The position numbers were made by a program, and so were the translations under genes. This document shows, one piece after another, positions 17,605 through 18,996 of a stretch of 64,000 bases of DNA. Where the stretch lies: NCBI GenBank assembly GCA_963667805.1, contig OY764016.1, positions 4,952,081 through 5,016,080 on the forward strand, written 5' to 3'. Below the pieces are notes generated by a model that had not been told where the DNA came from, did not search any database, and was given only the letters and a program-made list of their open reading frames with translations. The stretch comes from Candidatus Poribacteria bacterium. GTDB taxonomy: Bacteria; Poribacteria; WGA-4E; WGA-3G. Positions within the stretch are counted from its first letter, which is position 1. Each line of letters begins with the position of its first letter.

Positions 17605-17698
17605 AAAAATGAGAACTTTTATCGTGATTAGGTGTGTCTATTTCCTGTAGGCGAGCAGAGGGAAGCGTTCTGGACACAACATCACAAAGGAGTGAGTC

Positions 17699-17899
17699 AT
17701 GTTGGGAGCAAAACAACAGTGGTGCCCTCGCTGTCAAAGGCACGTCCAAACAGAACAGAAGCAATCCTACATTGGCAGACAGAAAGAGCTCGTCAGGATT
17801 ATTATTACCTGTTTCAAGTGTCGAACAACGCTGTCGAGCAGAACAACCAGCGCGGCCGCGCTTGAGCAGAGCGGAGAAGAGGCACCAACGCAACAGTAG
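17699..17899 (+). CDS. Small putative zinc-ribbon protein (66 aa)
   Basis: AAGGAG RBS; CPRC...CFKC pair; otherwise unexplained spacer. Confidence 0.6.
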   Translation: MLGAKQQWCPRCQRHVQTEQKQSYIGRQKELVRIIITCFKCRTTLSSRTTSAAALEQSGEEAPTQQ

Positions 17900-17981
17900 C
17901 GCAAATGTGCAATAATGCTGTGGAAATAAATGAAATCGTAAGTAAAATAAGTCGTTATTAAACAAAAAAAGGAGAAGATTG

Positions 17982-18896
17982 ATGTTCAATTCTGTTTTTC
18001 GCCGCATATCACTCGGTGTTCTGCTGCTGATGGTAGCCACTGTCCCCGCACTCATCGCGAGCGACGAAATTAAATGGGAAAAAACGCTTGAGGACAGCAT
18101 GTCAAAAGCCGAAAAGACCGGCAAACCGATGATGATGGACTTCTATACCGATTGGTGAGGGTTCTGTAAGCGGCTGGATGCCGAAACGTTCACAGATGCA
18201 CGCATTATCGAGCTTTCTGAGAAGTTTGTTCCCGTCAAAGTGAATCCCGAAGATAAGAGTTATCCACTCAATGAAGAGACGCGGAGTCGATACGGGGTCA
18301 CTGCTTACCCAGCAGTCCTGTTCGTCAGCCCAGATGGAGGTCTCATCCAAAGGGCTTCAGGATTTCTCACACCGGAACAGTTTTCACCGATTATGCAAGA
18401 TGCTTTGGCAAAAGAGGAAGTCTTTTCAAAGAAACTCGACGAACTCAAGAAGAAGCCAGACGATGCCAAACTCAACGCTCAAGTCGCGCTGACCTACATT
18501 GAACGGAACCAACTCGAAAAAGCAGTCTCGTTCAGTGAGAAAGCGTTTGAGCATGATCCGAGAAACCGGACGAAACTCCTCCCCGACCTACACAACCGAT
18601 TGGGACTCGCTTACGGCGGACTGGTTGAAAAGGCGATGCTTGAAAACACCGAAGAAGCGGAGATGCACTTTCAAAAGGCTGTCTCTCACTTCAAAGTCGT
18701 CATAGACACGTACCCGAAAAGCAAGGCACATGAACCCGCCCAATACTATCTCGGCGTAACATACGCCATCAAAGGGAATTTTGAAGATGCGATCGCCATG
18801 CTTGAGAAGTTATCCCACCATGCTAAGGATAAGAACATAAGGCAAAACGCTGAGGCGATGCTGGAACGGGTCAAAGATTTGGCGAGTTCGAACTAA
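17982..18896 (+). CDS. Exported thioredoxin-like/TPR selenoprotein (UxxC), 304 aa with Sec at TGA 18156-18158
   Basis: AAGGAG RBS, signal peptide, IKWEKTL...GKPMMMDFYTDW-TGA-GFC continuing in frame into the 18240-18896 ORF (YGVTAYP cis-Pro motif, TPR helices). Confidence 0.88.
18163..18196 (+). promoter_or_regulatory. Putative bacterial SECIS hairpin
   Basis: TCTGT/ACAGA lower stem, CGGC-TGGAT-GCCG upper stem-loop; G-containing loop starts 16 nt after the UGA. Confidence 0.65.
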
Positions 18897-18905
18897 CAAT
18901 TTCTG

Positions 18906-18996
18906 GTAGGTGCGGTTTTGCGGCGTACTCGCCCCGGTGAATGCCACACGGCATTCATATCGTTGATTCATGCGACCTGCATTCAAACCGCACCTA
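18906..18996. repeat. REP/MITE-like inverted-repeat element between convergent genes
   Basis: TAGGTGCGGTTT (18907-18918) / AAACCGCACCTA (18985-18996) with inner GAATGCC..GGCATTC hairpin; related to 50744-50767. Confidence 0.6.

Follow-up and report, generated by a model that had tools for sequence, protein, structure and literature searches.

The window analysed here is a stretch of 64,000 nucleotides from a Candidatus Poribacteria bacterium (assembly GCA_963667805.1, contig OY764016.1, positions 4,952,081 to 5,016,080 of the forward strand), carried on a single assembly contig of 5.51 Mb. On its forward strand, positions 17982-18896 very probably form one gene, for a selenoprotein of 304 residues in which a thioredoxin (Trx) fold with selenocysteine (Sec, U) at its active site is fused to tetratricopeptide repeats (TPR). 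Judged by its homologues, the protein represents the Sec-containing form within a family of exported Trx-TPR proteins that is widespread and uncharacterised and uses cysteine in other phyla.

The gene begins with an ATG at 17982-17984, preceded at a spacing of 7 nt by a Shine-Dalgarno box (AAGGAG, 17969-17974), just as a preliminary description of this DNA had claimed. From this start the frame reads ...PMMMDFYTDW, then a TGA (18156-18158), then GFCKRLDAETF..., and runs on unshifted, again as described, to a TAA at 18894-18896. Translating the TGA as U gives the 304 residues that had been announced, with a single in-frame TGA, at codon 59 (U59); the orthologous frames likewise stay open over this span and contain exactly one TGA each. 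The resolving cysteine of the resulting UxxC motif, C62, is encoded by a TGT at 18165-18167 and is an invariant column. Under translation table 11 the same frame falls into two open reading frames (ORFs), one of 59 aa (17979-18158) and one of 218 aa that starts at a GTG at 18240. Counting by eye, we found a GGAG in the 18 nt preceding the chosen start of 33 of 39 orthologues; the ATG and the N-terminal sequence are conserved as well.

To follow the TGA through related genomes, we searched 40 of them with stops read through, 24 of the same genus and 16 belonging to three further families of the order. Of these, 39 (24/24 and 15/16, respectively) have an orthologue, each with exactly one TGA; the sole exception was a genome of 91% completeness (G033), where no orthologue was found. 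The codon-level set comprised 39 sequences, i.e., that of the window and 38 fetched orthologues with 97% down to 36% identity to the window protein (one further genome, G023, was left out, its copy being split over two contigs). In all 39 the TGA stands at the same codon, in the context [W/S/T/Y]-U-[G/S]-x-C, and none of the 39 carries TGC or TGT there; U59, C62 and P110 are invariant. The alignment of homologues that the preliminary description had proposed, as a check on Cys/TGA pairing, thus returned TGA in every orthologue and cysteine at the aligned position in distant homologues.

Extending the search to 176 genomes of the phylum, we detected an orthologue at E <= 1e-20 in 158: 110 of 111 genomes in the family numbered f1, 11/11 in f2, 29/29 in f3, 6/7 in f4 and 1/1 in f9, with none at this threshold in families f5-f8, f10 and f11. 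Among the 150 phylum matches listed, 149 cover residue 59, each with one TGA, counted here as a TGA within the match (its exact codon was checked in the 39 fetched sequences), and the remaining match starts at residue 64. Selection on the gene was estimated as the ratio of nonsynonymous to synonymous substitution rates (dN/dS), using 319-458 of 741 sequence pairs per region after pairs with saturated or very low dS had been dropped. The median was 0.17 for codons 27-58, 0.20 for codons 60-130 and 0.18 for codons 131-304, the TPR part; purifying selection is similar before and after the TGA, and therefore both sides belong to one protein.

Some copies of the gene showed further peculiarities. 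Two orthologues (in G070 and G081) have a TAG inside the match besides the TGA, which may reflect alignment overrun or damaged copies. Genus g13 holds longer forms, with open frames of 346-442 aa and extra TPR repeats, and some of its genomes have a second TGA-containing copy (e.g., G096 and G097 among the matches listed). At the Sec position, P0124 has Cys and P0127 has Ser; both are database proteins that share an N-terminus (MFNSVF...) with the database relative P0089.

The genome encodes the machinery for Sec insertion. A tRNA-Sec (78.1 bits, gathering score 47; called by ARAGORN as tRNA-SeC with anticodon tca) lies directly after selB (345.7 bits, cutoff 242); selA (601 bits) and selD (361 bits) are, like selB, on the same contig, and selD itself carries one in-frame TGA. 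All four components score above their family cutoffs, in line with the earlier prediction that selA, selB, selC and selD would be found elsewhere in the genome: tRNA-Sec(UCA), selA, selB and a Sec-containing selD were all recovered. Across the phylum, selB exceeds its cutoff in 167 of 176 genomes.

Two other TGA-containing genes of this genome were noted. The selD selenoprotein (G000:C1:1751264-1752187, minus strand) reads ...KCAG-U-ASKLAPGE..., and a large fdhA-like ORF near C1:1718722, also on the minus strand, has an in-frame TGA in the context ...NCSRA-U-HAPTVAGL....

In bacteria, the selenocysteine insertion sequence (SECIS) is, by the criteria of bSECISearch, a stem-loop just downstream of the UGA with a G in its apical loop, and SelB binds a short GC-rich minihelix with a G in the loop. 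The preliminary description had reported a SECIS-like hairpin whose loop starts 16 nt downstream of the TGA. The candidate, 13 nt and four base pairs in all (18171-18183), consists of CGGC (18171-18174), a loop UGGAU (18175-18179) and GCCG (18180-18183); it starts 12 nt past the TGA, and its loop starts 16 nt past the A of the TGA. The reported position is thus right, and what stands there is a minimal 4-bp helix, strongly conserved, with one compensatory change only.

The conservation is pronounced at the level of codon choice. In the alignment, the hairpin core (columns 18-23, 25 and 26) is invariant in the 39 sequences and the flanking stem columns vary. Leu65 is encoded by CTG in 39/39 orthologous sequences, as against six codons for Leu78, and Arg64 by CGG (33/33), Lys63 by AAG (25/25) and Glu68 by GAA (27/27). 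Over codons 63-68 (18168-18185), the constrained zone around the candidate, normalised synonymous entropy falls to 0.095, compared with a mean of 0.68 for the gene; none of the 213 windows along the gene is lower, and the seven lowest all overlap codons 59-70. The helix is paired in 94.5% of the alignment cells, with one pair changed from G-C to A-U in 4 distinct sequences. Among 80 loci encoding Cys forms of the protein, a four-pair hairpin in the same columns was present in one (L066) and absent from 79, and the codons for L-D varied there.

Similar hairpins accompany the in-frame TGAs of selD and the fdhA-like gene. In selD, the UGA is followed after 12 nt by GCUC-CGGGU-GAGC, and in the fdhA-like gene UGCC-GGUCU-GGCA follows 14 nt after the UGA; both hairpins are short and GC-rich with GG in the loop. 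A strict hairpin pattern matched 56 TGAs genome-wide, 3 of them with frames open on both sides. A relaxed pattern was unspecific (open-frame matches at 23 TGA, 18 TAA and 10 TAG codons) and serves here only to show the like-placed hairpins in selD and the fdhA-like gene. Unusually small and lying inside conserved codons, the SECIS candidate offers a tidy case for the study of a Cys-to-Sec codon switch.

A number of points weigh against the selenoprotein reading, most of them concerning the hairpin. Its covariation is thin: a single pair changes, in 4 distinct sequences that are probably related, L050 has an A.C mismatch, and 6 of 32 distinct rows leave the outer pair open. Folded alone, the 81 nt that follow the TGA do not outperform shuffled sequence (z = -0.34; 68 of 200 shuffles at least as good), and therefore the single sequence does not show the hairpin above chance; the comparative data do. 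RNAalifold on 40-70 nt retains only 3 apical base pairs, and a putative lower helix (columns 10-14 with 35-39) is 78.8% paired without covariation. No Rfam family was matched at the region: a scan of the window at gathering thresholds yielded tRNAs only, and a scan of 18100-18300 by E-value gave only chance C/D-box matches far below cutoff. The K-R-L-D residues are conserved in Cys forms too, and therefore the nucleotide conservation is partly protein-driven; that of the synonymous sites is not. At L066, a Cys-form locus, the identical hairpin sequence occurs where there is no TGA. As for the gene product, contigs from RNA libraries of two studies run across the gene and show the TGA without an alternative letter (one of 1296 nt covers 17639-18934), but they are compatible with DNA carry-over, cannot prove transcription and are silent on translation. 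Finally, Sec in the product is itself a prediction from genome data, and we infer, rather than observe, the export of the protein, the reductase direction, the client role of the TPR and the link to DsbD.

Two additional pairings were considered and dropped. The lower helix just mentioned was given up for its lack of covariation and its 78.8% pairing, and an alternative AGCG/CGUU pairing, the minimum free energy solution for the single sequence, requires a variable synonymous third position that is G in only 51%.

The L066 locus, from a Fimbriimonadales metagenome-assembled genome (238-1068), has a TGT at the Sec position and the same AAGCGGCTGGATGCCGAC sequence as the SECIS candidate; its genome has selB, and the encoded Cys form is 34% identical to the window protein over 214 residues. 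The hairpin there may have arisen by chance through codon choice, or it may be left over from a switch between Sec and Cys. A placement of L066 as sister of the Sec clade was rejected: in the tree described below, that position belongs to other proteins.

The residue expected at codon 59 can be read from the Cys homologues. A search of the Protein Data Bank (PDB) aligned W-U-G-F-C on the WCGPC of 2kuc and the WCGAC of TXNDC12, so that U59 falls on the first Cys of both motifs; the TGA thus sits at the first Cys of WCxxC, where it had been placed before. Run against 1.84 billion representatives, a profile of the 39 orthologues retrieved 444 proteins at E <= 1e-30, many of them 270-300 aa long and aligned end to end, with signal peptide, D-F-Y-T-D-W-C-G-W-C-K-x-L-D and TPR tail. 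Among the best 150 of the 444, a motif of the type D-F-Y-T-D-W-C-x-x-C occurs in 106 (the other 44 being truncated calls or off-pattern), and in the motif instances the Sec position is occupied by Cys 121 times and by Ser twice. These homologues bear source names such as 'thioredoxin-related protein', 'thioredoxin-like negative regulator of GroEL', 'thiol-disulfide isomerase/thioredoxin' and 'BamD', and proteins or genomic loci of this kind come from Planctomycetota, Armatimonadota, Gemmatimonadota, Brachyspira, Bacteroidota and others. They resemble the window protein in length, signal peptide, the D-F-Y-T-D-W-C-x-x-C-K-x-L-D motif and TPR tail, and differ from it in having Cys for Sec, in lacking the hairpin (79/80) and in falling outside the Sec clade.

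That clade emerged from a FastTree phylogeny of 117 sequences, 39 Sec forms and 78 Cys forms, the latter being representatives of 255-330 aa with a single motif together with ORFs of >240 aa from ten of the genomic loci (L064-L073). All 39 Sec forms group in one clade with a support of 0.999, which is independent of the arbitrary rooting, and three Cys forms (P0136, P0150 and P0137) are its sister group (support 0.907). No Cys paralogue of this architecture was found in the window's genome by the orthologue search with stops read through. Sec would be a trait fixed once, in one order of Poribacteria.

With regard to the protein itself, the Trx-fold domain spans residues 32-137 (18075-18392), containing U59-G-F-C62 and the cis-Pro position P110, and is backed by Pfam, the PDB alignment and fold matches. 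Pfam Thioredoxin_7 (PF13899) scores 53.2 bits over residues 32-117 and Thioredoxin_2 (PF13098) 52.1 bits, each against a cutoff of 27. The TPR domain (residues 153-304, 18438-18893) is supported by Pfam and by a structural model, and a long helix (131-157) connects it to the Trx domain. Several TPR families exceed their cutoffs within residues 153-287 (TPR_1 34.4 against 27.8, TPR_19 32.4 against 25, TPR_2 30.5 against 27), and TPR_8 and TPR_17 were also found. The AlphaFold2 (AF2) model, computed from the 39-sequence alignment, has a mean predicted local distance difference test score (pLDDT) of 91.4 and a predicted template-modelling score (pTM) of 0.85, with Trx strands at 50-54, 83-87, 111-115 and 121-126, the long helix, and TPR-like paired helices over 162-303 with pLDDT above 90.

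Fold comparisons place the Trx domain near periplasmic proteins. Foldseek ranked DsbD-gamma first (template-modelling score TMt 0.70-0.77), and VIA-align gave DsbH (2ju5, Z 16.7), 3f9u (Z 16.4, root-mean-square deviation (rmsd) 1.9 A), DsbD-gamma (1vrs_D, Z 15.2) and 2kuc (Z 14.6). DsbD-gamma and DsbH, the best structural matches, are about 24-28% identical over the domain and have the CxxC position and cis-Pro in common with it; unlike the window protein, they have Cys instead of Sec and no TPR, and DsbD-gamma is tethered to a membrane domain. The TPR domain superposes on that of YbgF (2xev) over 121 residues (Z 12.3, rmsd 1.8 A). The preliminary description of a thioredoxin fused to TPR repeats therefore held for the Trx fold and the TPR, with the refinement that the Trx domain is of the periplasmic DsbD-gamma/DsbH/Thioredoxin_7 kind and not a classical thioredoxin.

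Residues 1-26 (17982-18059) are a predicted signal peptide or membrane anchor, read from the sequence: a basic RR, a 16-residue hydrophobic stretch (LGVLLLMVATVPALIA) and then A-S-D-E, with the RR not conserved in relatives. AF2 leaves these residues disordered, at pLDDT below 50, and Cys homologues have similar N-termini (e.g., L066, ...AAMAAAADEIQWEK). The segment looks like a signal peptide of the Sec type and suggests that the protein is exported; the hydrophobic stretch points to a periplasmic location. The TPR, going by its domain family, is probably a partner-binding module.

These features suggest how the protein might work. The UGA at codon 59 would be decoded as Sec by the genome's own SelA, SelB, SelD and tRNA-Sec, with SelB, bound to Sec-tRNA, recognising the hairpin CGGC-UGGAU-GCCG, which would be written into the codons of the conserved K-R-L-D-A-E, and directing insertion. 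With an N-terminal signal peptide or anchor, the folded part would face the periplasm. Its action there would be that of a thiol-disulfide oxidoreductase, with reduction or isomerisation the most probable activity: the U59 selenolate would attack a client disulfide (or sulfenate), C62 would resolve the selenenylsulfide, and the TPR groove would select or hold the client. A three-domain DsbD (alpha, transmembrane and gamma) is encoded elsewhere in the genome and would be the likely electron source that recycles the protein. We consider this explanation as a whole, selenoprotein and mechanism together, likely, a judgement that bears mainly on the selenoprotein; for the reductase or isomerase mechanism taken separately, the case is evenly balanced.

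Alternatively, the selenoprotein may have a different role, either as a periplasmic CnoX-like chaperedoxin (a holdase forming mixed selenenylsulfides under oxidative stress) or as an apocytochrome c reductase-chaperone combining CcmG-like and CcmI-like functions, which we regard as possible but rather unlikely. CnoX is described in the literature as a Trx-TPR protein with holdase and redox-protective activity, and YbbN/CnoX (E. coli 3qou, Salmonella 3qdn) likewise has an N-terminal Trx followed by TPR in one polypeptide of about 285 aa. Foldseek aligned the window protein to 3qou and 3qdn over the whole length (E 9.4e-6), VIA-align gave Z 12.5 for 3qdn, and one Cys homologue bears the source name 'thioredoxin-like negative regulator of GroEL'. 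This match is, however, at the level of architecture only, as whole-length superposition gave an rmsd of about 21 A and TMq of 0.24-0.25; moreover, CnoX is cytoplasmic, has GroEL as a partner, belongs to the PF00085 Trx subfamily and lacks Sec, whereas the window protein has an N-terminal hydrophobic segment predicted to direct export. As for cytochrome c, the second-best fold match, 3f9u, is the C-terminal domain of a putative exported cytochrome c biogenesis-related protein of Bacteroides, but no cytochrome c maturation genes lie near the gene.

A broader scenario would unite these elements. In it, a whole order of sponge-associated and marine Poribacteria would have a single exported Trx-TPR protein, in which Sec would have replaced the catalytic Cys once and been kept since; the SECIS would be a 13-nt hairpin created by codon choice in a pre-existing K-R-L-D-A motif; and the protein would be a periplasmic selenium counterpart of CnoX, its TPR holding damaged envelope proteins and its selenolate reducing or protecting their thiols. 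In this full form we find the scenario speculative and on balance doubtful.

We also weighed whether readthrough of the UGA inserts a standard amino acid, either Trp (as in genetic codes 4 and 25) or Cys or Trp by near-cognate suppression, and hold this to be highly improbable. The two full-length relatives among the 120 database proteins listed, P0089 and P0108, do carry W at the Sec position, which indicates that some pipelines translated relatives with TGA as Trp. Yet TGA ends 311 of the 1491 ORFs of at least 400 codons in this genome, and selA and selB have no internal stops, so the lineage does not reassign TGA. Furthermore, the position is the catalytic Cys of CxxC in more than 100 homologues, where a Trp would abolish function; the genome also has the complete Sec machinery, and its selD a hairpin at a corresponding place.

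Least credible of all, to the point of being barely tenable, is a TGA that is a true stop, whether in a gene broken by mutation or sequencing error or between a 58-aa peptide and a 218-aa TPR protein starting at GTG 18240: it agrees with the split of the frame under table 11, with the use of TGA as a normal stop in this genome and with the 118 of 120 listed database relatives that are calls of 167-244 aa starting after the TGA (a truncation by standard gene callers that the preliminary description had anticipated), but 39/39 sequences, down to 36% identity, retain the TGA at this codon and a TGA is counted in 149/149 listed matches covering the site, a sharing that a nonsense mutation or an error would not produce. 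In addition, the 218-aa call begins in the middle of the Trx fold and would lack strand 1 and the active site, purifying selection acts on codons 27-58 and 60-86 just as on the remainder of the gene, and a ribosome binding site precedes ATG 17982. The preliminary description had named the findings expected from such an error, a genome without Sec machinery and close relatives all with TGC or TGT; we found the machinery present and TGA in all the relatives.

Returning to the selenoprotein, we compared it with known families. The window protein belongs to the well-known Trx-fold selenoproteins with UxxC, and its domain combination is absent from the lists examined. In Table 1 of a 2022 review (PMC9312934), which comprises 87 prokaryotic selenoprotein families, the predicted 'Thiol:disulfide interchange protein' family (pfam13098, UxxC; representative WP_011366075.1) shares the Trx fold and Sec at the first position of UxxC, a comparison made through Pfam family and UxxC motif only; no TPR is mentioned for it. 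Also among the nearest entries are 'Thioredoxin' (UxxC) and 'PDZ domain-containing protein' (pfam13899, CxxU). The Trx7/PDZ (seleno)protein (NF041199), in the same table, is alike in fusing Thioredoxin_7 to a peptide-binding module and in having a Sec form; it differs in that the module is PDZ, not TPR, and that Sec is at the second position (CxxU). The term 'TPR' does not occur in the main text of PMC9312934, and its Table 1 has no Trx7-TPR family.

NCBIfam selenoprotein models stayed below cutoff (seleno_TsoB NF045694, 71.2 against 805; trx7_PDZ_seleno NF041199, 27.1 against 300; Trx_VPGUxxT_two NF041383, 29.2 against 275), their matches being limited to the Trx domain. Neither is the window protein a DsbD: it has a gamma-like domain only, without an alpha or 8-transmembrane beta domain, and scores 57.7 bits against a cutoff of 330. 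In a literature search on Poribacteria selenoproteins or selenocysteine and on bacterial Trx-TPR selenoproteins we found no description of the family, although survey supplementary tables might list it; Sec-containing hydrogenases in Poribacteria are mentioned in a 2026 paper.

Hundreds of public gene calls would accordingly be wrong, either starting after the TGA, with the signal peptide and active site lost, or reading it as Trp; with calls truncated or misread in this way, the family is annotated as plain 'TPR repeat protein'. Its recognition would add a Trx7-TPR family to the prokaryotic selenoprotein catalogue and give Poribacteria, an uncultured symbiont phylum, a conserved and probably periplasmic selenoenzyme. 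Culturable hosts such as Brachyspira would allow the function of the widespread Cys-using family to be investigated.

Regarding the gene neighbourhood, yidC, jag/khpB, mnmE and a small 66-aa ORF lie upstream, in this order, and a convergent pseudouridine synthase gene follows. The order mnmE, small ORF, Trx-TPR gene recurs in families f2 and f3 and not in f4, and none of the neighbours suggests a redox pathway. The small ORF (P0121, 17699-17899, plus strand) comes with an AAAGGAG box of its own, and two CxxC motifs (CPRC...CFKC) make its product look like a zinc ribbon. It was found by tblastn at 21 of 23 loci, among them those of families f2 and f3 (55% identity), matched nothing in Pfam or NCBIfam and has no signal peptide. 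A 5979-nt contig from one sponge metatranscriptome (run X5) connects 17734 directly with 17902; the skip of 167 nt takes out most of this ORF in the related strain concerned, which shows 27 further differences over the gene.

The stop codon of the selenoprotein gene is followed immediately, at about 18905-18996, by a small repeat with inverted ends (TAGGTGCGGTTT...AAACCGCACCTA), at which the RNA-library contigs pile up and break. Its end motif has 142 copies in the genome, counting both strands, and a copy was also seen at the L029 locus, in an insertion of about 150 nt upstream of the orthologue.

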